This document shows positions 1 through 30,952 of a stretch of DNA of 64,000 nt, one piece after another. The stretch is from the NCBI GenBank assembly GCA_000165345.1, contig CM000432.1:768001-832000 (forward strand), written 5' to 3'. Position numbers and translations under genes: made by a program. Every line of letters starts with the position of its first letter. Within the stretch, counting starts at the first letter, position 1. The notes beneath the pieces are model-generated. The model saw nothing but the letters and a program-made list of their open reading frames with translations, was not told the origin of the DNA and did no database searches.

Positions 1-1570
1 GTAGAGGCGGAGGAACCTTCTTACCATTTCTATATCTTGGGCGGTTTCTATCATACTTCATATAGCATGCATTACAGCAAATTTGTTTTTCAACATATGT
101 AGTGGGTGGAATATTACTTGATGGACTTGTTTCAGGTGTAGACGAGATCTGATCTGACTGAGTGTTGAACGCATGGTTAGATTCTTGTTTTAGAGATATC
201 GAATGTTCATCTTTATTGCTTGAATATAGTTCTCCCAAATTAAGAAATCTCCACTGTGAAGTTTGAGTAGTTCCGCAAACAATACAAATAGCAGAGCTCT
301 TGTCAATTTTTCTTCTTCCTCCAATATTTGATTTAATGGATTTTCTAGGCTTTTCAGCCTTTCTACTTTCTTGTCTGAGACCTATTTTAGATACCCAATC
401 CCCTAGTGTGTTGGAGATCTCGAATCCTCCATCAAAATTATTGAGTGACTTTCTAGAATTTGAAGATTGTGATTTACTAATAGGCGAAAGAATTGAGGGA
501 ATTGTCTGGGAAGAGTGAATTGGGGAGCTATTCACTGAAATACTACTGCTGCTCACTCCACCCGTAAAATTGACAGATGGTATATTTAATCGGCTTTCTG
601 AGCCTCCAATAAAATTGGCTGTAGGAGTCAAATTAGCACCTACAGCCCCCCCATTACACGGAATTTGAGATAGCGATGCCAATGATACCATATTTGGAGC
701 CTGAGATCCTCCATTTTGTAACTCAAATAGGTTAAAAGGCATAACTGTGGATCCAGTTCCAGATCCAGTTACAGTTACAGTTCCAGCCCCAGCCCCAGTC
801 CCAGTCCCAGATCCAGATCCAGTTCCAGTTCCAATTCCAATTCCAATTCCAGTTCCAGATCCCGGCCTAGATCCCTGTCCAGTTAATGCATTATTATTAC
901 CTTGCCAACCAAGATACATTTGTCTAAGTAATGGATTAAAACATCCTGCTGTTGTACCTGCTATTCCGTATCCACCAGCTAAAATTGGAGAATACATAGC
1001 CATGGCCATTTGATTGTATAATGCTAACTGTTGATAATAAGCATTCATAGTGTTATTCCACTCTATCTGAGATCCAGGATAAGGAAATAAGCTATTTGAC
1101 GAATCTACTTTCGATTTTAAACTCCCTTCATCTACACTGAATGAATTGAAACTATTCGAGTTATTACTCTGAGAGTTATTGACTAAGCTTGGAGGAAGCA
1201 GTTGAGCACCTGTTGCTGGGCTACATGAAGAAAATCCAGCTCCTAATCCTGTATTATTAGAAGTTGATCCTCCATTTGGGAAGTAACTATTTGAAGCCAT
1301 TTCTTTATTCTTCATCTCAGTAATTTTTGAAAATATTGAATAAAAGTTACTCAGGTTTGAATATGCGTCATCTCTTTCATTTACTATATTGCATCCTGGT
1401 GACGAATTCGCACTAATAAACATAGTAGGAGGACTATCAGGAACATTCTGAGATGCCAGCTTGCCAGTTGTTGAGTAGATAAGCATAGGATCTTGCGCCA
1501 AATCTGAAGCTTTGACATTACTCATCTCGGGAATTGCCTCTTTGGATATTAGATTTGTGCTGAATGACAT
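1..1570 (-). CDS. GATA-type zinc-finger protein with a Gly-X dipeptide repeat. The 5' end is complete with ATG at 1570 preceded by an in-frame TAG. The 3' end runs off the window.
   Basis: Manual reverse-complement translation is open from 1570 to position 1. It reads MSFSTNLISKEAIPEM...GSGTGIGIGIGTGTGSGSGTGTGAGAGTVTVTGSGTGS...CIVCGTTQTSQWR...(~55 aa)...CCNACYMKYDRNRPRYRNGKK. CxxCGTTxTxxWR and CNAC-Y match the GATA finger signature. The track misses this gene because it has no stop inside the window. Confidence 0.6.
   Translation of the reverse strand, partial: MSFSTNLISKEAIPEMSNVKASDLAQDPMLIYSTTGKLASQNVPDSPPTMFISANSSPGCNIVNERDDAYSNLSNFYSIFSKITEMKNKEMASNSYFPNGGSTSNNTGLGAGFSSCSPATGAQLLPPSLVNNSQSNNSNSFNSFSVDEGSLKSKVDSSNSLFPYPGSQIEWNNTMNAYYQQLALYNQMAMAMYSPILAGGYGIAGTTAGCFNPLLRQMYLGWQGNNNALTGQGSRPGSGTGIGIGIGTGTGSGSGTGTGAGAGTVTVTGSGTGSTVMPFNLFELQNGGSQAPNMVSLASLSQIPCNGGAVGANLTPTANFIGGSESRLNIPSVNFTGGVSSSSISVNSSPIHSSQTIPSILSPISKSQSSNSRKSLNNFDGGFEISNTLGDWVSKIGLRQESRKAEKPRKSIKSNIGGRRKIDKSSAICIVCGTTQTSQWRFLNLGELYSSNKDEHSISLKQESNHAFNTQSDQISSTPETSPSSNIPPTTYVEKQICCNACYMKYDRNRPRYRNGKKVPPPL
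745..872 (-). repeat. (CCAGWY)n hexanucleotide repeat on the plus strand. It encodes a ~38-residue (Gly-Ser/Thr/Ile) dipeptide repeat in the minus-strand GATA gene.
   Basis: The plus strand reads ccagttccagatccagttacagttacagttccagccccagccccagtcccagtccc... The 88-aa plus-strand ORF at 747..1013 (PVPVPDPDP...) is the antisense artefact of this repeat. Confidence 0.8.
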
Positions 1571-3348
1571 TTGGATTAATTCTTTTAAAGTTTTGAATAA
1601 CTAATATACTCTATTAAATAACTGATAGTTAATTGGCCAAAGCCAAATTATTTTTATTAATTTCTGATATGCACTGCTTTATTTTATATATTCCTTAGTT
1701 TCCCCGTCTAATTATCAGTGCATTTTACTTTCATTCGTGACCTTTCTTTTTTTTTGTTGCTACTGACTGAAAAAGAAGCCCTTAGAAACAACTTCCTCAC
1801 TCCAACCAGATACCAGAAATCTGCTCAACTCACCTTATCAATTTGCTAAAACCTTGACTCACTTTTTCGATACTTTTTTTCTATTCTGTTACCTTGATCT
1901 TTATAACTTTTGCATCACAAAGATTTAATTATAGTACTTAACCACTTTATACTCACTAAAGCCTTGAATTTTACCTCTTCATATAATGATATATTTGCAG
2001 GCTAATTATCATTACAATCTCCCTTGATAATCTTTTTCTACTTTTTTCTAATGATCTGTAATCTAAAATTATACCGTTACTTGCAATTAATGATTTTAAC
2101 GTCTTGCCTCTTGTCGAGAAGCTAAGGCGCCAACACTGCTCGATATGATGTTTGTATGGGATTTCGCGATGGGTAAAAAATTATACAATTTTTTTTTAGT
2201 TAATTTTCCTCTAAAAAGTACATTTTAGAGCCGATTATAGTGGATTATGATAGCTTTAGTTTCTAGTTCTTGCATTTTCTTCATAAAGAATTCATTTTTT
2301 TTTTTAAGATATTAATTATAAGCATACAAGTTATTAAAGACAACTCGACAATATTTTTTTGTGACTTATTAGTAAACTTATAAATAGTTAATCCTATTTC
2401 GGATTTGGTCTTTTATAATGAATTACTCCATCTTACTAATGATAATTATTATTCGCATGCATTATATGTGTGAGCCAATCATTTAAATCATTAACCAAAG
2501 ACTATAGTAAAAGTGACTTAAAAAAAATTAGGAATATTTTTGGTGCTTACAGCTATACATGATCTTTTGTTTATCTGTTGTTCTTTACATTATTAAATCA
2601 TCTTCAAGCCTGCTCAAAATTATAAAATTTGATTAATAGTAAATACTACAGAATATGTATAGAAGCTCAGTTGGATACGCATACAAACGAGTTATGTGCA
2701 TTATTTAGAAAATAAATAAAAGTTACTTTATTAATGTGTAGAGTAGAATAAACCGAGAGAAAAAAAACTTTTAGTTTAAAATTAACCTTTCAAATTATTA
2801 AACTATTAACATCAAAACTTTCCTCCTACTGATAGTTTGGTCTACTATTCTTTTCTACTCTTATTTCTTCCCACCATGAAGGCTGTGCAACTTCAACCGG
2901 AGGATCCTAAAATTTTTTTATTCATTAGTAATAGATCCTTGAATATCAACTACCCAACTATTTTGGAAGTTCTACTTAACTTACCCTACAACAACCGAGT
3001 ATCTTAAATAAAAACAAAGGATCAAAGTTCATTCTCTTCAAGCTGTTTTACTGCAATTAATTCACTTGTTGAACTCTGTGGGGTTCTCACAATGTTTGAT
3101 TAATTTTCAGAGGTAAATTGATTTGGCGGCACGTCCAAAGTAAGTTTAGTTTTTTTTTAGTACCTATTTTAACGTAGAATTGATAATGCAACAATTATTA
3201 AAAATTACGTATTGAACTTAATAGAAAGTTTTGATAACGAAATACTGAAATGGTAACAGAAACTTTAAATAACGAGTCAAAACATGCAAATAGATCTTAG
3301 TAGAATTCTAGAAATAAGTGAAAAACCTAAACTTTAGATTAAAGGTAG

Positions 3349-3375
3349 TATTATGTATTCCGGGAATACATAATA
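3349..3375. repeat. Perfect 27-nt palindrome (tattatgtattcc-g-ggaatacataata) that could form a hairpin, in an intergenic region.
   Basis: Direct reading shows 13-nt arms that are exact reverse complements around a central g. Confidence 0.6.
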
Positions 3376-3860
3376 AATAAAAGGTCATCCATCCTCTCTT
3401 TTCCCTTCCTGCAATATCTCTTGCCAAATTTTCCTTGTATCTTAAGAATTGCCTTTCCCGTAAATTAGAAATCCTTTTTTGATTTTTTCATTATACTTTT
3501 CATTCTTAAGTTGAAAAAAATAATATAATAGTAATAATACCTTCCTTATAAGATGGTGAGAAAAATTTTATCGTTTCTTAATATAATTACAATAGAATAG
3601 TAATAACAGCACCACTATAGTGAGATCAATATTGCATTTGTGCATACAATGTAAATTCAGATATTCTTATCTTGCGAATATTAAGCACTACTTCGACAGC
3701 TTGGTCTCTTTCTATCCCTTCTATTTTTCCTCTCTACTCATTAAAATGAGATTAGTAAACATTCTAATATAAACAAAGAAAGTCAAAAGCATCGTGTAAT
3801 AAAGATTCTCTACTATTCATGAGGTTTAATAATTGAGGCAAGGAATCTCATTGTAATGCT

Positions 3861-5408
3861 TTATTGTTCCAAACTTTCAGAATTTACCTCTTCCTTTGGA
3901 TTCTCACTTGCATTGCAGCACATTGAAGTTATTGAGAAACCATCGTGATGCGATGCTTCAATAGCCTCAGGCTTTATTGGAATAATATCCTTCGGCATGC
4001 TTAGAGGAGCAGCGCCTAAGACTGCCATTGGAATACATTGTTGAACTGGATAAGTGACAATAGGTGTTTGATCCATTGGACCTAATGTGTCAACATTGAC
4101 GACTTCTTTAGATTCAAGTCCTCTAATTAGATTCTGAGCTCCAGAAGGAAGTGAATCAATATCAACAACTCCAGCAGCAGCTTCACATCCACATAATGAG
4201 ATCTGGTGTGGTGCTAAGTTAACCTGCTGAGGTGCACCGGTTACCAAATTATATACAGCCTGTTGTTGTAACATAAAGAATTCTTGAGTATACATTTCTT
4301 GAGTTTGAATAGTAGGTGTAAGAATCCATTGGTTTTGTAAATATGTCATCATTAATGGATTTCCTGGAGACATTGGTAAAGGATCCCACAATTGTCTTTG
4401 CAAGTTCATTTGTCTCTCGAAGCTCTGCATACGTTCTAGGCTTGGTTCCTGGTTGGAGTCAATACCATCCATTGCCTCACGGTATGGTGTAATCATCCTA
4501 TCAATTTCCATCTCGCCAACTAAAACTCTTCTTTCTTCTAATAAATCTGCATTAACCCTCATCCACATTGCATGGAAGTCAGCCTGTGATAATTCTGCGG
4601 GATTCATCAAGTGAACATCCATCTCTCTCTCTCTCTTTCCAAATTCAACATCAACAGGTACTGGTTTGATAATATCTTCATACACAAAATAGGGAACTTC
4701 TCTTACACATTCCACCTCGTATACTTCCTCAGTCATCTTAAACTTTGGAACTACTCGCTTTCTTACTGGAATTGGAACAAAATGATCACGGAATTCCAAA
4801 ACTGGAACATGGACTGGAACAACAAAGGGCTTTGGGACCATGTATGGCACGGGAAGCTCAATCAAAGATGGAACAGCGTCTCCTACTGCAACTCTTGTGA
4901 TGCTAACAACAGTGTTTTCATCGATCTCAATAGGGTTTGGTGGGAAAATTGGGAGTGATTCAGGGGCGTTAATAAAAGGTTTTTCTGGTTCCTCTACATA
5001 TGTCACCTTTTCTACAATCTTCTCAACTGTTTTATACTCGACAACAGGTTTGGTTACAACCTTCTCAACAATCTCCTCTTTTGGAACGTATTTAACGTTA
5101 TACCTCACAACGGGATCCTCGATAATTTTTTCCACTGTCTTAATTACTGGAACCTCCACAACTTTCTCTCTATATTCAGGAACTATACGTGGAACTGTTC
5201 TCACTACTTCCTTAACTTCAACATCTGGTACTACAGTTTCTACCAACTTAACTAAAGGTATTCCTCCCTCAGCTACGCCACTTGTCGAGCTTTCTTCCGG
5301 GATTTGGAGCGATGGAACCACATATCGCTGCTCCTGAACTTCATCTTCAGCAAAGCGAGCATGGTGCTCACGTCCCGAGGTCTGACCTGAACGCTCACTA
5401 TTACTCAT
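3861..5408 (-). CDS. Alveolin-repeat inner membrane complex (IMC) protein.
   Basis: A 515-aa ORF with ATG at 5408. Its core is rich in Val/Pro/Glu/Lys iterations (EKVVEVPVIKTVEKIIEDPVV, EKIVEKVTYVEEPEKP, KPFVVPVHVPV), typical of alveolin domains. Confidence 0.7.
   Translation of the reverse strand: MSNSERSGQTSGREHHARFAEDEVQEQRYVVPSLQIPEESSTSGVAEGGIPLVKLVETVVPDVEVKEVVRTVPRIVPEYREKVVEVPVIKTVEKIIEDPVVRYNVKYVPKEEIVEKVVTKPVVEYKTVEKIVEKVTYVEEPEKPFINAPESLPIFPPNPIEIDENTVVSITRVAVGDAVPSLIELPVPYMVPKPFVVPVHVPVLEFRDHFVPIPVRKRVVPKFKMTEEVYEVECVREVPYFVYEDIIKPVPVDVEFGKREREMDVHLMNPAELSQADFHAMWMRVNADLLEERRVLVGEMEIDRMITPYREAMDGIDSNQEPSLERMQSFERQMNLQRQLWDPLPMSPGNPLMMTYLQNQWILTPTIQTQEMYTQEFFMLQQQAVYNLVTGAPQQVNLAPHQISLCGCEAAAGVVDIDSLPSGAQNLIRGLESKEVVNVDTLGPMDQTPIVTYPVQQCIPMAVLGAAPLSMPKDIIPIKPEAIEASHHDGFSITSMCCNASENPKEEVNSESLEQ
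4621..4636. repeat. (CT)8 microsatellite inside the alveolin CDS, encoding RERE on the minus strand.
   Basis: Bases ctctctctctctctct at 4621-4636. The protein contains GKREREMD at this position. Confidence 0.7.
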
Positions 5409-6610
5409 CTTAATTCTATTTTTCCCTTGTCCTCTTATATCTCTTATTCTCTCCTGCTATTTTTTTAATACATGTATTAGACATAGACATAATGAATTTC
5501 CATATAGCACACAAACTCTACGTCATGCTTTATTAAATTTTTGATCCCAATTATCTCACAATTAAATAAAGAGCACTTTACCGCCATGTCTTGTATATGA
5601 TCTTTAAAATTATTTCGGAAATAGCTAAAATTGTTATTGGAGTTTAATAATAAACACTTGTTACCTGATTCATTAGTTATTCTTAGAATTGTTGTGTCAA
5701 ATGTAATGTTTAGTATTTTCTTTATCCTTCTGAATTTTTTTTTCCTATTATTGCAACTTTGATTCCCTGTTTCTAGACAACATTATGACAGAGGATTATA
5801 CAAGAATAGCATAATTCGAAATTCTAAAAATATAGATATTCTTTCAGCGAGATAAATCTGCAAATCCTATACGAGAGTGCCATCAGTTATGGCCACTTCC
5901 TCTTGCTTCTAAACCTAACGTTTCTTAATCATGCACCTGTAACATAGAGCTAAAAACGTATCAAAGAGCTATATTATTAATAATATTAACTATTCAATTC
6001 AATATTAACAACACTCAAACGGAGAATCAAATTTTCTCTATTGCATGCAAGAGTTGTCCATGCAAAAATGTTGCATGTGGGATGGCGCTATTTTAAATAA
6101 TCTGCCTGCTTTAATGATATATTAAACATTTAGAAATAAATAAGAAGGAGAATTATTGTGTTAGGAATTAATTCATTTCTCAAACTAATAGCTGTAATAA
6201 TCTAACAATAACTTTTTTTACACTCAATGTTGCACTTTATTTTGATCCATCACTTATATTTCAATAATTATTGAAAAATATAAATTTACTTTGTTGTAGA
6301 CGAGACGTGAAGAACTGTGATAGCATGTGCGTACGTATATATTATAAAGTAATATATGATGTATGATAATGTAAGTAATATTATATATATAATCAATTGA
6401 ATAGTATAATAAATGCGATAATCTGATTAATAGAAAATCAGAAAATATTAGCGGTATTTGAGTAGGAGAAAAGCAAAACAATAAGTTTTAAGGCTTGAAT
6501 TAAAGATCGTGTGCGAAGAAAAAAATAATTAGGGGGAAAATTCCAACTTTATATTGAATTAGGTAATTATTATATATTTAGAAAATAATAATTGATAATA
6601 GAAATTAAAG

Positions 6611-7405
6611 ATGCCAGCAAAGAAGAATAATGGTGGACAAACCGATAGAGATTCAGAATCAGGATTAACTGATCGTCAATCTAATAAAGTTGAAAGTAAC
6701 ATAGTTGAAGTGCCAGAATTGCATTTCCATGAAAAATATTCAGCTGTGAATATCCCTGTGGTACAGGAGAAGATTAGATATGAAACAAAGGAGGTGATTC
6801 AAGAAAGAGAGGTACATGTAGTGAAGCCAGTCGTTAAGGAGAAAATTGTTGAAGTTCCAAAATATAAAGTTGTTGAGAAAGTTGTTGAAGTTCCCCAAGT
6901 TGTTGTGCAGGAAAAGCTGATCGAGGTTGAGAGAGTGGAGGTCACTTCAAGAAGCAGAAATCAATCAAGACCAATAAGTCCGGTGGAAAAGAAACAATTA
7001 GATATTGTTACGCAATATCGTCAAGTCCCAAAGCCAGTAGAAGTTCCTATTGCATTTTACTCTGCTATTCCTGTTCCTATTTTGATAGATAGAGCAGTTC
7101 CTGTTCCAATGGAATTGCAAATTATTCAAGATATATTATGTCCAAAGATTGAGGCGATCTATAAAGACATTCCAATTCCAATTCCAGTTAAGAGAACAAT
7201 TGAAAAACCTGTGCCAATTGGTCTATATGATCAGCCAGAACTTCTCCAAAAATACCTTCACGACCCTAATGAGCCATTACCAAATCCAGTCGCAGCTTTA
7301 GAGCAAATGGCTCAACAAGCATCCATGGCTGCTGCATTAAACCAACAAAATATGATGCAAATGATGCAACAGCAGGGCAGTGTACAACAAGAGCCTCAAG
7401 AGTAA
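6611..7405 (+). CDS. Alveolin-repeat IMC-like protein with a Gln/Met-rich C-terminus.
   Basis: A 264-aa ORF with ATG at 6611. It carries the repeats EKIVEVPKYKVVEKVVEVPQVVVQEKLIEVERVEV and later PIPIPVKRTIEKPVPI. It is arranged head-to-head with the 3861..5408 gene. Confidence 0.65.
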   Translation: MPAKKNNGGQTDRDSESGLTDRQSNKVESNIVEVPELHFHEKYSAVNIPVVQEKIRYETKEVIQEREVHVVKPVVKEKIVEVPKYKVVEKVVEVPQVVVQEKLIEVERVEVTSRSRNQSRPISPVEKKQLDIVTQYRQVPKPVEVPIAFYSAIPVPILIDRAVPVPMELQIIQDILCPKIEAIYKDIPIPIPVKRTIEKPVPIGLYDQPELLQKYLHDPNEPLPNPVAALEQMAQQASMAAALNQQNMMQMMQQQGSVQQEPQE

Positions 7406-7566
7406 ACGGAATTTGTTGTGTTTCTACTCTGACTACCGAAATTAAGACAAATAAAAAAAAATAATAAAAGAATAGATTGTCAAAACTTGTTGTATTTAAT
7501 ATTTAGTTAATTATTATTTATATGTTAATATAAATACTTTTTTTTCGGAGGCTTATATATAATAAT

Positions 7567-9498
7567 TTAATCTTTAGAAAAGTACTTGATGAGTAGATCC
7601 TTGATAAATCCCATAATATCTTTTGCTCTTTCTAATGTTGGTGATTCTACATATACCCTTGCAACTTCCTCAGTGCCTGATGGTCTTATAAATGCTCTGG
7701 AGTAATTATCGTTCAAATTTGAGATATAATTATCAATGCTTTCCTGTATTGCTTTTGGTTCAACTAGAAATTTTTCTGTTTCTTTATCACATATTAGAGT
7801 CTCGAGGTCGCATCTATTTAAATAGACTTTATCTTGAATGACATTAAGATCGTCATAAAGGCGCATAGAAAATTTGCAGCCAAATCTGGTTTGTATAAAT
7901 TTTCTTGCAACTTCAAATGCAAGCATATCAGAGATTGCATCTCCAATTACAGGATTAAACAAGTTCAGGAAATAAGTTAATAATCTGCATGAATTATTAT
8001 TTATCCCAAATTTTGACATCTCTTCAACCCATGATTTTAACTTGTCTTCTTTGTGAATTACAGTTCCATGGCCATTTGCCTCGAAATATACTGCAATGTC
8101 ATATTCTTCTGCTTTTCTGTGGAGATGCTTAACTCCAGTTGGGACACAGTTAATAGAAAATCTGAAATATTTTGGATTTAATGCACTAAGTAAATCATTT
8201 AGATACTTGGTACTAGCTCCATTAGCATATGCTGTTTGGATTACACCTAAACACAAAGTGGGAATTGTGTCTGTTTCAACTGTTATCTCTCTTATGGATT
8301 GACTTAATAGGGTAGCAACCACAAGAACATAGCATGCTGAAATTCTATCTCCATCAATCAAAAAAATTTCAGAATTATCATTTTTATGAAAATGATTAGG
8401 TACAAAGTATATCAATCTGTCAGCATCCCCATCAAAAGCCGCAACATAGTCAACTTTATCTGAATCATAATCTTGGTAAGAATAGAACCCAACAGGAGGG
8501 AGGGTATTTTTTTGAATATGTTCTGCTCCGCAGCCATCATTAAGTTTTTCAGGATTATCGCAGTTAATCATTTTTAGACTCAAACCAGCATAAGATAGTA
8601 TCTTTGAAACCCTATCAGCGTGGTATTTTCCCACGCCATTCGCCACATCTACCAACAAGATCCCATTTTCATTTATCTTGTAATTTTCAATTTTGTTGGG
8701 TTTTGCCTTAAAAAAAAGATGGCTATTTTGAGTAAAAAGGAATGAGTGATCATCATTTTGTATCAAATTCACTAACTGTTTAAAGTAATATTCATGATAG
8801 GCAAAGTAAACCTCAAAGAACGATGAGACCATTTCACTCTTATTTTGGTTGCTACATTTCTCCAAGTCTTTAATAAGATTTTCGAACATTACAGTTTTTT
8901 TAATATCAATTGGAACTCTGTCGATGATCAATCCATTTGCAAATGCTACCATGAAATGCAACTGCGGAGTAGTCGTAAATCCAAAGTTTAAAAATCTCGA
9001 GATTCCGAATTCTGATATAAATCTCTCAATAGACTCTAGAATATATTTTGATGATGGTCTGGTATCGAAACCTACTATTAGTTTTGCTTTTGAAAGCTCT
9101 ATTTTGTTTAGCTCATCATCGCCTAATGCCAACTTCTCCTTGAAATAATGCATCAATACTCTCACTGGATTGCTCGCATCCTCATGGTTTACAGCATTAA
9201 AGCAAATTTGCTCAAAATCTTTGTTCAGCATACTTCCTGTAACATCCACAATCTTCACTCCATTATCTTGAATTGGGTTATGCGATGCTGTTATTACAAC
9301 CCCGACCCACTTTTGTTCCAGAATACTTCTTAGGCAAGCAATTATTGTGCAAATCATAGCCACTTGTTCTACTCTATGTGGATTCTCCTCATAATTCATT
9401 CTGAATCCAGCTGTTCCATATATTAATGGCCTTAAACTTTGTAACTTTCCACATTTTTCTATTAGAACTTTTGTCACTCTTTCTTCAAATTCGCTCAT
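7567..9498 (-). CDS. Phosphoacetylglucosamine mutase (AGM1/PGM3-type phosphohexomutase).
   Basis: The ORF is 643 aa. It contains the active-site Ser loop VVITASHNPIQDNGVKIVD (the TASHNP..DNGVK pattern of PAGM), the metal-binding motif FDGDADR and the C-terminal RPSGTEEVARVY. It starts MSEF...YGTAGFR as AGM1 proteins do. Confidence 0.85.
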   Translation of the reverse strand: MSEFEERVTKVLIEKCGKLQSLRPLIYGTAGFRMNYEENPHRVEQVAMICTIIACLRSILEQKWVGVVITASHNPIQDNGVKIVDVTGSMLNKDFEQICFNAVNHEDASNPVRVLMHYFKEKLALGDDELNKIELSKAKLIVGFDTRPSSKYILESIERFISEFGISRFLNFGFTTTPQLHFMVAFANGLIIDRVPIDIKKTVMFENLIKDLEKCSNQNKSEMVSSFFEVYFAYHEYYFKQLVNLIQNDDHSFLFTQNSHLFFKAKPNKIENYKINENGILLVDVANGVGKYHADRVSKILSYAGLSLKMINCDNPEKLNDGCGAEHIQKNTLPPVGFYSYQDYDSDKVDYVAAFDGDADRLIYFVPNHFHKNDNSEIFLIDGDRISACYVLVVATLLSQSIREITVETDTIPTLCLGVIQTAYANGASTKYLNDLLSALNPKYFRFSINCVPTGVKHLHRKAEEYDIAVYFEANGHGTVIHKEDKLKSWVEEMSKFGINNNSCRLLTYFLNLFNPVIGDAISDMLAFEVARKFIQTRFGCKFSMRLYDDLNVIQDKVYLNRCDLETLICDKETEKFLVEPKAIQESIDNYISNLNDNYSRAFIRPSGTEEVARVYVESPTLERAKDIMGFIKDLLIKYFSKD

Positions 9499-9947: not shown

Positions 9948-10469
9948 ATGGAAGATCAGCCAATACAGCAAGAAATAAATGAGGAGCTCGAGGATAAAAC
10001 CAGTGAATTCAAGGGTATGCAAGAAGTTAGTAATTTAGAACTGAATGAAAACAATGAAGAGAGCATTGAGTATTTTCAGAATGAGCGAAAGTCAAATGAA
10101 CTATTAGACTCCAAACCTTCAATTCAGGAAAGCAAAATTTCAAATATAATTGAAGCAAATACAAGCAATGAAAAACTATATGTTAACATCAGAAATGAAA
10201 ATGTAAGTTTAAGAATATTATTCTAGGGAAATACATCGATAAATTGCCCCTTGAACCAATAACGAAAAACATTTAATAAAACGAAATTTTAGGGAATCTA
10301 TAAAGAAAAGATTGACCCAAACAATTTTTATGAAATGTTGAGTTACGAGCTATACAGATCAAATGGGATAGAAAGGGACTATCCAATTGATTTATGTTTA
10401 GATATTCAGGAAGATATTGATAATATATTACCATTTCTACAAAAGTCAATAATTAATAGAAAGAAATAA
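9948..10469 (+). CDS. Hypothetical small acidic protein, spliced. Exon 1 is 9948..10202, the intron is 10203..10292 (GTAAGT...TTTTAG) and exon 2 is 10293..10469.
   Basis: The track ORF 9948..10226 ends in TAG inside a GTAAGT-initiated stretch. Splicing at the first downstream AG that restores frame gives 58 further stop-free codons (GIYKEKIDPNNFYEMLSYELYRSNGIERDYPIDLCLDIQEDIDNILPFLQKSIINRKK) in AT-rich DNA. The product is about 143 aa. Confidence 0.35.
10203..10292 (+). other. Candidate 90-nt spliceosomal intron (GTAAGT..AG, phase 0).
   Basis: The donor is the canonical GTAAGT at 10203. The acceptor is ttttag ending at 10292. The downstream frame stays open for 58 codons. Confidence 0.35.
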
Positions 10470-10504
10470 ACTAGATAAATTATTATAATTAAGCAGAAAC
10501 TGAT

Positions 10505-12592
10505 TTACATATTAACTAGTTTCAAAATATAATATAATGGCTTGAGCTCTTCAATCGCACTTTTTGAGGGCTCATCATCGCCAGCAGGGAAGGTTTCTTT
10601 TCTACCAAAATATCTCCTTATTGAAATAACCGCATTTTTTCGAACAGTATTATCAGCAGATTCAGATAAAAGCATATTGCAACCCAATTTAAGTGTTGCG
10701 TTTGAATTATTATTCTCTATTATTTCGTTAAAAATGTAATATAAAGAGACTTCTTGGTATTTCCATGCAGATAATATACAATTTGCATCAATTGGGAAGT
10801 CATTACATGGAATGCCTTCTGGATCTAAAAGAACTCTAAGCTTCGGAAATTTGATAATTATTTGACCGCAAAGCTTAATTAAGAAAATACTCGAATCAAC
10901 TTCACCAGATTTGCACAATACGAGTGAAATTTCTGCGATAACAATTATGAGACGGTAAAGATAGCTCGAATTAGAACTTGAAAAAATGCTTGTATTAAGA
11001 ATGACTGTTGGTAGCTCTTTATCCTGAAGGGAAATACTCATCTCTTTCAAGTAATTAGAATCAGCTTTTTTAGGAGAATTGAGAATATTCTTCATTTTTA
11101 AATGTTCTTTCTCAAGTCTTAAAACAAGATATCTCAAAATCCAAGAATTATCTTCAAGTTGTTGCTCATTAAGTTGGTTTCCTCTTTGAAGTAAAGAAAA
11201 GCAACATTTAAGTACCATTACAAAACTTTTCCATTTTAGATTATCACTCTTATAGAGCTTTCCTTTTATAATTTCAATTAACTCAGATCTTATCTTCAAG
11301 CTTATCCTATTACTATACTGAGATATTCCTAGATAAACATGTTCAAGTTCATCCAAATCCAAAAGTAAAACTTTCGAGTAAAACGTGAAAAGGTGCTTTA
11401 AAATTTGTTCCTCTCTTTCTATAAGTATCTCAACCTTTACTCTAGTTGTACTTGTCTGTTGTATCTCATCAATAATTTCCTTGCTAATGGTGTTGGTGTT
11501 TGGACCAAAAATCCTCCTAAATTCACTCCTTGACTCTTCTATTCTATGCCAAGGAGCGTATTTAGTGAATGGTATAAGGATCCATTTTGAAAGTGTGAAC
11601 ATATTTGCGGCATTCTTCTTACTCTTTCTGTTAAATAAAGTCTCATGTATCATATTCACTGCTTCAACTCCTGTTTCAAGAGATGCATCGTTGGCTAACA
11701 TGTTTGTTAATCCTTCACAACAGTAAGAAAGGCAAGATCTCGTCTGAAGATCTTCTTCATTTCCTGACATTAAAAATAATATGATCATTCTAAGTAATAT
11801 AGTATGGTGATTGAAGTGATATGTCGCATCAAGTAAATCCATCGTTGACCTTAAAATGGCAGATTTGTTTTTAGTGATGGTTGTATTATTTTTAACACCA
11901 AACCCAAGTATTTTCTTTAGTAGAAGGCATGTTCTCTTATAAATATTGAGAATTTTCCTCTCAAAAGAGTGTATTTTTTGAGTTTCTTTTCTGAGACTTA
12001 CTTTATCATTTGAAGCATCAGAACCTGCGCCTTCTAAACCAATTATTTGACTTGAAATCTTATATCCAGGAACAAGATCTTTCACAACTATCAAAAGAGA
12101 AATAATGCAAAGCTCAATCGGGAAATTCACAGTACTCTTATTTAAATTACTTGAATTCCAATTTTTTTCGCAATACTCTAAAAGTACTGTGAGCAATTCA
12201 ATATTATTTTCTGGGTCAGCCATTACCAAATCACAAATTTTTGCAACATCTTTTGGTCTTTTTATTGAAACAATTTCATTATTAAAGTTATCGTCATTGT
12301 CATTAACTTTATTCTGTTTAACTTTCTTTAACTTAGCAGCTTCCTTCTTTTTTAGATCTTTTAAACGTCTCAACTCAGTTTTTGAAAGAATTTGCATATT
12401 TTCTTGACTTTTCCCCGTATTATCCCCTTCCAGATCTTGTTTTGCCTTCTTATTTACATTGTTTGTAGGAATATGCCACCCTTTTCTCTTGTTATCTAAA
12501 ATAGGTAACCCTGTTAGAGTATCCGCATTATCCGACCATTTTGCAAACTGAGTGGCTCTTCTTGCTCTTTCGTACTTTTCTTCAATTTCCAT
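10505..12592 (-). CDS. NOC3: Nucleolar complex-associated protein 3 (NOC3/NOC3L, ribosome biogenesis and replication initiation).
   Basis: The ORF is 695 aa. Several blocks align with NOC3L from memory: ADPENNIELLTVLLEY ~ SDPENNIKKLKELRSM, VVKDLVPGYKI ~ LFKDITPSYKI, LRKETQKIHSFE ~ TRKETQKLREFE and ATYHFNHHTILL ~ ALPHFNFHNNII. Confidence 0.7.
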   Translation of the reverse strand: MEIEEKYERARRATQFAKWSDNADTLTGLPILDNKRKGWHIPTNNVNKKAKQDLEGDNTGKSQENMQILSKTELRRLKDLKKKEAAKLKKVKQNKVNDNDDNFNNEIVSIKRPKDVAKICDLVMADPENNIELLTVLLEYCEKNWNSSNLNKSTVNFPIELCIISLLIVVKDLVPGYKISSQIIGLEGAGSDASNDKVSLRKETQKIHSFERKILNIYKRTCLLLKKILGFGVKNNTTITKNKSAILRSTMDLLDATYHFNHHTILLRMIILFLMSGNEEDLQTRSCLSYCCEGLTNMLANDASLETGVEAVNMIHETLFNRKSKKNAANMFTLSKWILIPFTKYAPWHRIEESRSEFRRIFGPNTNTISKEIIDEIQQTSTTRVKVEILIEREEQILKHLFTFYSKVLLLDLDELEHVYLGISQYSNRISLKIRSELIEIIKGKLYKSDNLKWKSFVMVLKCCFSLLQRGNQLNEQQLEDNSWILRYLVLRLEKEHLKMKNILNSPKKADSNYLKEMSISLQDKELPTVILNTSIFSSSNSSYLYRLIIVIAEISLVLCKSGEVDSSIFLIKLCGQIIIKFPKLRVLLDPEGIPCNDFPIDANCILSAWKYQEVSLYYIFNEIIENNNSNATLKLGCNMLLSESADNTVRKNAVISIRRYFGRKETFPAGDDEPSKSAIEELKPLYYILKLVNM

Positions 12593-12902
12593 GCTTTCCT
12601 AGTAAAGTAATAATTCCAATATTACCATAAAAAAAAGATTATTAAAGTTTTATATACTCTCGTTAGTTCACTTGATAATCCCGCAGCTATCAGCCATGTG
12701 CTTATTCAATGAGGCTACCAGAACATAAAACCGCAAGAAGTCTAACTCTCCACTTACAAATCTATAGCTACGATTCTTATATTAAACTTTTAATACACTT
12801 TTTCCTATTTTAAATTCAGACTTGTCAGCCTTTACAATTTTTATATACAAAAGGGCGCTCCAACTCAGAGAGTAGTAATATTACAAAATTCCTATAAACT
12901 TA

Positions 12903-13160: not shown

Positions 13161-13190
13161 TGCATTCATACTTGCATGCATGCACACACA
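13161..13190. promoter_or_regulatory. TGCATGCATGCA cluster (GCATGC-type motif) in the NOC3 upstream region.
   Basis: Bases tgcattcatacttgcatgcatgcacacaca. Confidence 0.35.
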
Positions 13191-13534: not shown

Positions 13535-15403
13535 TTAGTTAATCATGTAATCCAAAAATTCGTTCCAGTCCACAACTCCATCGCCATTTGTATCAGCAGC
13601 CTTAATAATACTATCCCAATCTTTGTGAACAAGGAGCTTTTGGTCACCACTACAAAGTACCTTCTCAAACTCATTCACTGATAGCTTTCCATCGCCGTCA
13701 ATGTCCATTTTATTGAAAGCTGCCCTTATAACACCAAGTTCGCTGTCCCTCCATTCATAGCATGCTGCCAAAAATTCGGTATAGCTAATAAATCCTGTAT
13801 CATCTACGTCCATTGACTGAACAATTCGATTAATATCCCATTGTGGAACTCCAGCCGATTGTAGTCCTGAAATAAGCTCCTCTGGAGTAAGAACGCCATT
13901 TCCATCCTGATCTAGTGACTTAAATGCCTTGGTTATCTGCTTAATCTGGGGTCCAGTTACGTTTAATTGGTGTGCCATCATATTTACTAACGCATGTTTG
14001 AGCTGATTTTGCTTCATATAATTCTTCAAATTATGAAGCAGCCTATTATTGATGCAAATCGGTTCATTGTTAGATTTTGAATACCTGAACCAAGGATGTG
14101 AAAGTACCTCTCTAGCTGTTGGTCTACAAGCTGGATCTTTTTGAAGCATTAATTGTAGTAAATCTATTCCTTCTGGAGTAATATGTACGCAATCCTCTTC
14201 ATACTTTGGCTCTGTATTCAAAACACTGTTTCGTACTTCCTTTATACTTCTTCCTGTGAATGGAAGTGTTCCTGCTAAAAGAAAGTACATTACAACTCCT
14301 GCACTCCAAACATCACATTCCGTCGTAATATCACGCAAAAATACTTCTGGCGCCATATATAGCACAGTACCAGCCGCATGATTACTATGGTCATCCACAG
14401 ATTTAAAGATTTCTGCCAATCCAAAATCAATAATTTTTATTGAAGAGTGGTGTGATTTCTCTTGCATCAAGATATTTTCTGGCTTTAAGTCTTTGTGTAC
14501 TATATTTCTAGAGTGAAAATAGGCTAATGCTGCCATTATTTGTCTCATTATGTGTGCTACATATCTTTCACTTAGTCTGAAACCTTTAGATACTGCCTCA
14601 TGTATACGTTCAAAGAGTTCCCCTCCTCCACAATTTTCCATAATAATGTACATGTGTTCTTTGTCTTCGTATACCTCGAAGATTTTAATAATGTTTGGAT
14701 GGTCTAAACTTTTCAAAACTGCAACTTCTGCTTCTATTTGTTCTAAACTCATATTCGACAAAGATCTGTCAATTATCTTGCATACTCTTGTTAATCCACT
14801 ACATCTCTCTCTGACTAAGAAAACCTTTCCGAATGAACCCTCTCCAATTTTCTTATCAAAACTAAATATGCTTTCAATATCATCAGCTTTCTTTAAAGAA
14901 GTTCTACGTACAAATTGGTCGCGGGTAACCAAAATCGACTTTTCTGGGTAGTACTTTTCTCTTATACTATTCAATAAGTGCCAAAAGAATTTTGCAAATT
15001 GCTCGAAATTTAAAAAGCCTGTTTTTCCAACATCATACTTTGCAAATATTACTTTAAGCATTTTATCATCTATTGGAGGGAGCTCCAAGTTTATTGCTAA
15101 CCTCTCAAGCAAGCGTTTAGTTTCCGTATAATTTAATTTACCTCTTTTCTCTTCGTCAAACTGAGAAAATGAAGATTTTGCACTTTGAAGAAAAGAACTC
15201 TTACTTGACAAAGCCATTGCCAAACGAGTCCGGATTGCCTCTAAATTACTTTGCTCCTGCTCTTGGTACTGATCCTGGTCATCCACACCATAATCATAGT
15301 ACTGCTCTTGGTTTGAGTCTTCCAACTGCCCTACATTTGCGTAGTCTATATATTTATCGTATTCATTTTCCACAAATCCGTCGTCAGTATATTCACTACT
15401 CAT
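13535..15403 (-). CDS. Calcium-dependent protein kinase (CDPK) with an N-terminal extension.
   Basis: The ORF is 622 aa. It has the Ser/Thr kinase motifs GEGSFGKV, HKDLKPENIL and DFGLAE, then four EF-hand loops (DQDGNGVLTPEE, DVDDTGFISYTE, DIDGDGKLSVNE, DTNGDGVVDWNE). An extension of about 180 aa sits at the N-terminus and contains a degenerate EF-like loop, YDVGKTGFLNFEQF. Confidence 0.9.
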   Translation of the reverse strand: MSSEYTDDGFVENEYDKYIDYANVGQLEDSNQEQYYDYGVDDQDQYQEQEQSNLEAIRTRLAMALSSKSSFLQSAKSSFSQFDEEKRGKLNYTETKRLLERLAINLELPPIDDKMLKVIFAKYDVGKTGFLNFEQFAKFFWHLLNSIREKYYPEKSILVTRDQFVRRTSLKKADDIESIFSFDKKIGEGSFGKVFLVRERCSGLTRVCKIIDRSLSNMSLEQIEAEVAVLKSLDHPNIIKIFEVYEDKEHMYIIMENCGGGELFERIHEAVSKGFRLSERYVAHIMRQIMAALAYFHSRNIVHKDLKPENILMQEKSHHSSIKIIDFGLAEIFKSVDDHSNHAAGTVLYMAPEVFLRDITTECDVWSAGVVMYFLLAGTLPFTGRSIKEVRNSVLNTEPKYEEDCVHITPEGIDLLQLMLQKDPACRPTAREVLSHPWFRYSKSNNEPICINNRLLHNLKNYMKQNQLKHALVNMMAHQLNVTGPQIKQITKAFKSLDQDGNGVLTPEELISGLQSAGVPQWDINRIVQSMDVDDTGFISYTEFLAACYEWRDSELGVIRAAFNKMDIDGDGKLSVNEFEKVLCSGDQKLLVHKDWDSIIKAADTNGDGVVDWNEFLDYMIN

Positions 15404-22218: not shown

Positions 22219-22249
22219 GCATGTACTAATGCATGCATGCATTGCATCC
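22219..22249. promoter_or_regulatory. GCATG/TGCATGCATGCA cluster in the divergent MOB1/GRWD1 intergenic region.
   Basis: Bases gcatgtactaatgcatgcatgcattgcatcc. Confidence 0.4.
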
Positions 22250-30541: not shown

Positions 30542-30952
30542 GCTACTCAAAGCAATACTTTGAATAGTAGAAATAAGCCTAGTATAACTTTTACTCTACT
30601 CTCGCACACCACTTGTTTGTCTATTTACTAATTCATAGCAAAAATGCATTTACCGCCCCCACTTCGTAATTGCATGCAAAAATCACATCATCCACATGTA
30701 ATCTCCTTCGAGTGCTTTACACCAGCAATATAGGCGGGAGGGGAAAAAAGAATGATACCCATTCGGAATAGATGACCAAGGATTGACCAACTGAGTATAG
30801 AAAAGTTAAAAGTTATTGATTTGAGAATAGCTTTTTCTGGAAAAGGAAATGAACTGGAGGAAATATTACTAGTAATAAATCAAAAAAAGCAAAGGGATCT
30901 CACACAGAAAGAACTTCAAGGGGGGTAAGCTTAAAGAGAAGAATTCTCTCAT

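Follow-up and report, generated by a model that had tools for sequence, protein, structure and literature searches.

The 64,000-nucleotide window analysed here (the whole stretch from position 768,001 to 832,000 of the forward strand of contig CM000432.1, assembly GCA_000165345.1) contains a divergent pair of alveolin genes of Cryptosporidium parvum, cgd4_3290 and cgd4_3300, and the head-to-head pairing of these two genes is ancient and conserved across apicomplexan parasites. Sequence comparison identifies cgd4_3290 as the Cryptosporidium orthologue of Toxoplasma gondii IMC1 (TgIMC1) and Plasmodium IMC1a, and cgd4_3300 as that of TgIMC4 and Plasmodium IMC1e. The locus is thus probably the C. 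parvum copy of an old divergent pair encoding filament proteins of the subpellicular network, in which each gene would have a proximal promoter of its own, a central cluster of AP2_1-type sites would perhaps act on both, and the two products would co-assemble. The pair and the spacer between the two genes are laid out as follows:

3861..5408, minus strand: cgd4_3290 (EAK87794.1), open reading frame (ORF) of 515 amino acids (aa)
5409..6610, no strand: divergent intergenic region, 1202 bp from ATG to ATG
6611..7405, plus strand: cgd4_3300 (EAK87793.1), ORF of 264 aa

Both ORFs lie exactly where the first-pass annotation of this DNA had placed them, in the divergent orientation that it described, and both products are identical to proteins of C. 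parvum Iowa II in an exact-sequence look-up. The G+C content of the window (~32%) and its long, intronless ORFs are as expected for this species. The gene identifiers derive from the supplement of PMC3542205 and were assigned to the 515-aa and 264-aa ORFs by mapping the quantitative reverse-transcription PCR (qRT-PCR) primers of Mauzy 2012, which fall at 4637 in cgd4_3290 and at 6919 and 7022 in cgd4_3300. The pair, and the C. parvum annotators' description of its members as 'adjacent paralogous' genes, have been public annotation since the 2004 C. parvum genome, and the gene catalogue is left unchanged. In the main texts of the literature searched, nothing relevant was found under the cgd4_3290/3300, cpbgf_ or CPATCC_ identifiers. 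A pan-alveolin antibody stains the inner membrane complex of C. parvum and is not gene-specific (PMC13236581).

Both cgd4_3290 and cgd4_3300 are alveolins. The sole Pfam-A family matched by either protein is PF12314 (IMCp), at 51.4 bits (E 1.4e-13, aa 64-135) in cgd4_3290 and 32.5 bits (E 1.1e-7, aa 60-132) in cgd4_3300, against a gathering score of 21.1 bits. The alveolin assignment of the first-pass annotation, which it had proposed to check by exactly this profile comparison, thus holds for the smaller gene as well. The alveolin/IMCp family, which reportedly goes back to Gould et al. 2008, appears as the 'articulin family' in the C. parvum annotation, and the Val/Pro/Glu/Lys repeats of EKIVEVP type are evident in both translations, as EKVVEVP, VEKIIEDP and VEKIVEKV in cgd4_3290 and as EKIVEVP, EKVVEVP and EKLIEVE in cgd4_3300. 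The following protein features were delimited:

4509..4901, minus strand: second conserved domain of cgd4_3290 (aa ~170-300), PVPYMVPKP..VPVLEFRDHFVPIPVRKRVVP.., with invariant columns packed densely from V179 to P251 of the family alignment
5004..5219, minus strand: alveolin repeat core of cgd4_3290 (aa 64-135), EKVVEVP-type, PF12314
6788..7006, plus strand: alveolin repeat core of cgd4_3300 (aa 60-132), EKIVEVP and EKVVEVP, PF12314
7013..7216, plus strand: IMC4/IMC1e-specific post-repeat block of cgd4_3300, QYRQVPKPVEVP..DRAVPVPMELQIIQDILCPKIEAIYKDIPIPIPVKRTIEKPVP, with invariant columns Y150-P202, common to P. berghei IMC1e (PbIMC1e) and Cardiosporidium IMC4
7292..7402, plus strand: Q/M-rich low-complexity C-terminal tail of cgd4_3300 (aa ~228-264), from the translation

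Outside Cryptosporidium, the best matches of cgd4_3290 are the IMC1 proteins of Besnoitia, Neospora, Hammondia, Cystoisospora and Eimeria and the IMC1a proteins of many Plasmodium species (E 1e-50 to 1e-76), and 72 columns are invariant in an IMC1/IMC1a family alignment of 13 sequences that includes Plasmodium, coccidia and cgd4_3290. The protein carries the repeat core, the second domain and the C-terminal region (AELSQADxHAMWMRVNADL, LMTYLQNxW) that mark this family. Its aa 170-400 were also matched by tblastn in Cardiosporidium, Besnoitia, Eimeria and P. berghei, and the second domain is probably the 'type 2' alveolin domain described for PbIMC1a (nomenclature of PMC4303705). The N-terminus (MSNSERSGQ) is without the family-consensus MFxxCSDCC, while the C-terminal CGC and CC motifs are kept. 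The literature names TgIMC1 as orthologue of Plasmodium IMC1a (PMC5223771). For cgd4_3300, the matches include proteins named IMC4 in C. felis and Cardiosporidium as well as the PbIMC1e locus (tblastn E 6e-35). Its post-repeat block QYRQVPKPVEVP...DRAVPVPMELQIIQDILCPKIE...KRTIEKPVP aligns with P. berghei IMC1e, and it contains the block QYRxxPKPVEVP..DRxVPVPVELQIIQ..LCPKIE..R.IE.P.P that is characteristic of the IMC4/IMC1e orthogroup in the alignment with PbIMC1e and Cardiosporidium IMC4.

The arrangement of the pair was checked on contigs encoding the orthologues in Cardiosporidium, P. berghei, Besnoitia, Eimeria and five other Cryptosporidium species. In Cardiosporidium cionae (L001), IMC4 (7314-9484, minus strand) and IMC1 (10001-12248, plus strand) are 516 bp apart, while in P. 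berghei (L003) IMC1e (6027-7565, minus strand) and IMC1a (10001-12804, plus strand) are separated by 2435 bp, roughly 2.4 kb against the 1.2 kb of C. parvum. Just upstream of IMC1 in Besnoitia besnoiti (L002) lies a minus-strand gene that matches cgd4_3300 with E 5e-27 and Cardiosporidium IMC4 with E 3e-82 (tblastn), and the corresponding gene in Eimeria intestinalis (L004) gives E 4e-29 and 1e-105; neither has a Pfam hit on record. The Toxoplasma genes have consecutive identifiers (IMC1, TgGT1_231640; IMC4, TgGT1_231630). The same layout occurs in the Cryptosporidium chipmunk genotype I, C. canis, C. felis, C. bovis and C. andersoni, with spacers of 1126-1462 bp. Only the alveolin pair itself is kept, and the genes that flank it change in every lineage:

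Cryptosporidium: phosphoacetylglucosamine mutase
Cardiosporidium: NifU and trehalase
Plasmodium: dynamin-like and PBP
Besnoitia: macro-domain and tubulin

The Plasmodium pair alone has been remarked on, and a statement that the pairing is conserved throughout the phylum was not found in the literature searched; this phylum-wide conservation is the sole mildly new point of the present analysis, the rest being ordinary and largely known. A metagenome scan with the IMC1 alignment found nothing, while one with the IMC4 alignment returned 43 contigs, mostly of 1-4 kb and too short for gene order. The contig of one further sequence (P0011) ends 886 nt upstream of its gene.

The first-pass annotation had derived the two genes from one another, as an inverted duplication that later diverged, with the second copy retaining about 60 aa of repeats and gaining a Q/M-rich tail. 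A recent, Cryptosporidium-specific event of this kind followed by truncation of the second copy would account for the shared repeat type and accord with the annotators' wording of 'adjacent paralogous' genes, yet it is extremely improbable. BLASTP between cgd4_3290 and cgd4_3300 gives no significant similarity (best E = 0.3), profile-profile comparison of the two family alignments (hhalign, E 2.3e-15) confines the resemblance to an 89-column repeat core, and inverted DNA matches between the genes are only 14-30 nt long and restricted to repeat codons, the longest good one being 20 nt that encode EKVVEVP. Outside the compositionally biased repeats, these sequences therefore do not allow paralogy to be demonstrated. 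A recent inverted duplication is moreover refuted by the separate orthologues of each gene in distant apicomplexans, where they stand in the same head-to-head arrangement, so that any duplication must predate the apicomplexan radiation. The Q/M-rich tail is present, although it falls in a region that is variable across all orthologues, and its origin in a copy of cgd4_3290 is unsupported.

A trimmed IMC4/IMC1e orthologue is a better description of cgd4_3300 than a degenerate copy of cgd4_3290. No shorter member was seen, and with 264 aa, a single short block of repeats and no cysteine motifs at its ends it is a minimal alveolin. Relative to PbIMC1e and Cardiosporidium IMC4 it is without the cysteine-containing N-terminus, an internal repeat stretch and most of the C-terminal extension, and the orthologues measure 261-286 aa in Cryptosporidium against 512 aa in Plasmodium and 413 aa in Cardiosporidium. 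The N-terminal cysteine segment that the Cryptosporidium IMC4/IMC1e orthologues are without is a palmitoylation site in other alveolins.

The spacer between the genes was footprinted in a six-species Cryptosporidium alignment scored in 20-nt windows. It contains no Rfam family at a permissive E-value, no tRNA by ARAGORN and no credible ORF, a 75-aa TTG-start ORF being AT-rich and taken as spurious. The whole window likewise yielded no RNA family at the Rfam gathering scores. The following elements were delimited in the spacer:

5409..5620, minus strand: conserved zone adjoining cgd4_3290, sharing 70% identity or more with each of the five other species, even the distant C. bovis and C. andersoni
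6041..6090, no strand: three (T)TGCATG(C/T) units clustered centrally at intervals of about 15 bp, TGCATGCA (6042-6049), CATGCA (6059-6064) and TGCATG (6072-6077), followed by GGCGC (6084-6088)
6297..6348, plus strand: conserved block TAGACGAGACGTGAAGAACTGTGATAGCATGTGCGTACGTATAT, 263-314 bp upstream of the cgd4_3300 ATG
6432..6456: conserved block in the cgd4_3300-proximal zone
6485..6519, plus strand: conserved block upstream of cgd4_3300, holding GTGTGC at 6509-6514

Conservation is strongest in two gene-proximal zones (5409-5620 and 6297-6519), while the ~680 bp between them align poorly. From this pattern, 5409-5620 is inferred to comprise the 5' untranslated region (5'UTR) and core promoter of cgd4_3290, and 6297-6348 the promoter or transcription start region of cgd4_3300. 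The two zones mirror each other in that GCACAC at 5507-5512, which reads GTGTGC in the sense of cgd4_3290, lies at -99 to -104 from its ATG, and GTGTGC at 6509-6514 lies in the sense of cgd4_3300 at -102 to -97. Two copies of GCACAC/GTGTGC in the spacer compare with 0.11 expected (P = 0.005), and both fall inside blocks conserved across species. GCACAC/GTGTGC is the AP2_2 motif and TGCATGCA the AP2_1 motif of C. parvum upstream regions (Oberstaller et al. 2013/2014, as reviewed in PMC12246861, Table 3). The spacer thus has exact consensus matches to both at intergenic positions, which are putative binding sites, conserved in position.

The three motifs that the first-pass annotation had quoted are all present, TGCATGCAA at 6042-6050, TTGCATGTGG at 6071-6080 and GGCGC at 6084-6088, and all lie in the poorly aligned middle of the spacer. 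Only those of the TGCATG type stand out from chance. TGCATG/CATGCA occurs five times in the spacer against 0.54 expected from dinucleotide shuffles (P ~0.001), with four copies within 60 bp (P ~0.0015), and Tandem Repeats Finder reports 2.5 copies of a 15-bp unit, TTGCATGCAAAAATG, at 6041-6077. The exact TGCATGCA at 6042-6049 and the two half-matches nearby make 6041-6090 a candidate binding cluster for ApiAP2 factors of the AP2_1 type. Sites of the TGCATG type occur 592-666 nt from the cgd4_3290 ATG in C. parvum, the chipmunk genotype, C. canis and C. felis, while the Besnoitia spacer has no TGCATG site. GGCGC, in contrast, occurs once against 0.19 expected (P = 0.17), no more than chance, and is kept only in the three closest species, being absent at that position in C. 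felis, C. bovis and C. andersoni. As an E2F/DP site it was rejected, as its context TGGCGCTA has T at position 7 and fails the pattern [A/T][C/G]GCGC[G/C][A/T], in addition to the motif being neither enriched nor conserved. In the whole window TGCATGCA occurs eight times against 0.67 expected, always between genes. The other sites are at 13173-13184, 22230-22241, 30671, 38752 and 62707, two of them being overlapping doublets (TGCATGCATGCA), and those at 30671 and 38752 are flanked by convergent ORFs and adjoin 3' ends, not promoters.

The expression of both genes can be followed in the Mauzy 2012 supplement, which gives qRT-PCR values for four replicates at 2, 6, 12, 24, 36, 48 and 72 h. Both transcripts, almost absent at 2-6 h, rise to a sharp maximum at 12 h and, after a drop at 24 h, to a second one at 36 h; merozoites are assembled at both these times. 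The co-expression that the first-pass annotation had anticipated is borne out over this 72-h course, with r = 0.97 for the log mean profiles and r = 0.92 across all 28 samples. The transcript of cgd4_3290, however, is ~85-370 times that of cgd4_3300 at five of the seven time points, in qPCR values without primer-efficiency correction, while the ratio is 145 at 2 h and 12 at 6 h, when both genes are near the detection limit. Eight of 20 further genes of chromosome 4 from that section of the supplement also reach r of at least 0.9 with cgd4_3290, while the immediate neighbour cgd4_3310 gives r = 0.50. Since the 12 h/36 h profile is common among neighbours, the co-expression is not specific to this spacer; it stems from a large regulon for merozoite assembly, for which no shared promoter is needed. 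A 12 h peak, mostly with a second one at 36 h, is displayed by cgd4_3280 (window positions 1-1570), cgd4_3330 (13535-15403), cgd4_3380, cgd4_3440, cgd4_3450, cgd4_3470, cgd4_3520 and cgd4_3540. The profile of cgd4_3460 is similar with its maximum at 36 h, and those of cgd4_3310 and cgd4_3320 are unlike that of the alveolin pair.

A bidirectional promoter is conventionally one in which divergent start sites lie close together, less than 1 kb apart, and draw on one shared regulatory region. Such a promoter, occupying the 1.2-kb spacer and serving stoichiometric co-expression of the two cortical proteins, was the central proposal of the first-pass annotation. In its favour are the divergence of the genes, the tight temporal correlation, the enriched TGCATGCA-type cluster roughly midway along the spacer (630-680 bp from one ATG, 520-570 bp from the other), and the same suggestion made for Plasmodium by Tremp et al. 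2014, who noted the opposite orientation of imc1a and imc1e and suggested shared promoter elements (PMC4200347); the idea of promoter sharing had thus already been voiced for the Plasmodium orthologues. It nevertheless appears unlikely for C. parvum. The large transcript difference contradicts stoichiometric expression, the same time profile is found in many unlinked genes and in the eight neighbours, which do not share the spacer, and conservation is strongest beside the two genes rather than at the centre. The distance of 1202 bp between the ATGs is also long for the compact genome of C. parvum. Furthermore, the P. berghei proteins are not co-expressed, IMC1a being restricted to sporozoites while IMC1e is found in all zoite stages, namely merozoites, ookinetes and sporozoites (PMC4303705, Table 1), unlike the C. 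parvum transcripts with their one common time profile. The split of conservation into two proximal zones argues against a single core promoter, without settling the question.

The opposite extreme, in which the genes are neighbours only as a neutral leftover of an old tandem or inverted duplication, with fully independent promoters, a common merozoite-assembly regulon and no regulatory coupling, is quite unlikely too. It would fit the separation of the conserved sequence into two proximal blocks with one GTGTGC apiece, the time profile common to many other genes and the differential expression of the orthologous pair in P. berghei, as well as an IMC1-like gene that stands alone on a contig of a metagenomic eukaryote (L011). 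However, the pair is head-to-head in Cryptosporidium, Cardiosporidium, Plasmodium, Besnoitia and Eimeria although every flanking gene differs, and little gene order is otherwise common to these apicomplexan lineages, so that without constraint its retention would be difficult to account for. The central TGCATG cluster is, in addition, positionally conserved among the intestinal Cryptosporidium species.

The reading that we favour as probable is that of two proximal promoters within one ancient pair. Each gene would have its own proximal promoter and 5'UTR (5409-5620 and 6297-6519, respectively), carrying a sense-oriented AP2_2-type GTGTGC ~100 bp from the ATG, while the central triplet of AP2_1-type sites at 6041-6090 may act on both genes. 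ApiAP2 factors of late merogony would switch on both genes as members of an extensive merozoite-building regulon, with transcript levels far apart. From the binding-motif and single-cell-cluster tables of PMC12246861 (Tables 3 and 4), the candidate factors would be cgd1_3520 (AP2_1-like, cluster 7) and either cgd8_3130 or cgd4_600 (AP2_2-like, clusters 6-7). In Toxoplasma, TgIMC1 and TgIMC4 are recruited jointly to daughter buds and bind directly in yeast two-hybrid assays, and IMC4 is mislocalised in the absence of IMC1 (PMC13175489); by analogy, joint assembly of the two C. parvum products in the pellicle of merozoites and sporozoites is probable.

Several points weigh against this reading. 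Besides the many genes with the same profile and an abundance ratio uncorrected for primer efficiency, the central TGCATG cluster is weakly conserved and displaced in C. bovis and is down to one site in C. andersoni. No IMC4-like gene occurs in the 7-8 kb to each side of the IMC1-like gene on L011 (6899-8765), from a JGI metagenome eukaryote of 32% GC, so the pairing does not extend to every organism that bears IMC1. Conservation is the only basis for the two-promoter layout and for the role proposed for each motif, and the presumed interaction of the Cryptosporidium proteins is carried over from the Toxoplasma pair.

The closest known systems resemble the C. parvum pair in arrangement and differ from it in detail. 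The Plasmodium imc1a/imc1e genes (PBANKA_040260/040270; PF3D7_0304000/0304100) form an orthologous pair in the same head-to-head orientation, encoding longer proteins (784 and 512 aa) with N-terminal cysteine motifs, unlike the C. parvum pair. The T. gondii IMC1 and IMC4 genes have introns and code for larger proteins than those of C. parvum; for this pair, it is in Besnoitia, a close relative, that the head-to-head layout was verified.

The surroundings of the pair include one further gene directly downstream of cgd4_3300:

7567..9498, minus strand: cgd4_3310, phosphoacetylglucosamine mutase, with Pfam AMG1 and PGM domains

On the other side, 2.3 kb (1571-3860) separate cgd4_3280, a minus-strand gene ending at 1570, from the 3' end of cgd4_3290, an unusually long distance for a compact genome. 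This interval contains no ORF of at least 60 aa, no Rfam family and no tRNA, and the matching gap measures ~2.2 kb in the chipmunk genotype and C. canis and ~1.2 kb in C. andersoni.

A broader proposal, which can be offered only tentatively and with less than even confidence, is that the IMC1/IMC4 (IMC1a/IMC1e) pair is a rare gene-order unit under selection throughout the phylum, in Cryptosporidium, coccidia, haemosporidians and Nephromyces-like lineages. Its products would be direct partners in the subpellicular network that need a shared regulatory neighbourhood, of which the central AP2-site cluster might be the Cryptosporidium form. The alveolin pair is one of few gene neighbourhoods common to Cryptosporidium, Toxoplasma-like coccidia and Plasmodium, and in Toxoplasma the two filament proteins that it joins are now known to bind directly. 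To our knowledge, almost no Cryptosporidium promoter has been dissected so far. With its delimited conserved blocks and known ApiAP2 motifs, the 1.2-kb spacer is a compact test case for the activation of late-merogony genes in Cryptosporidium, and it could supply merozoite-stage promoters for transgenes.

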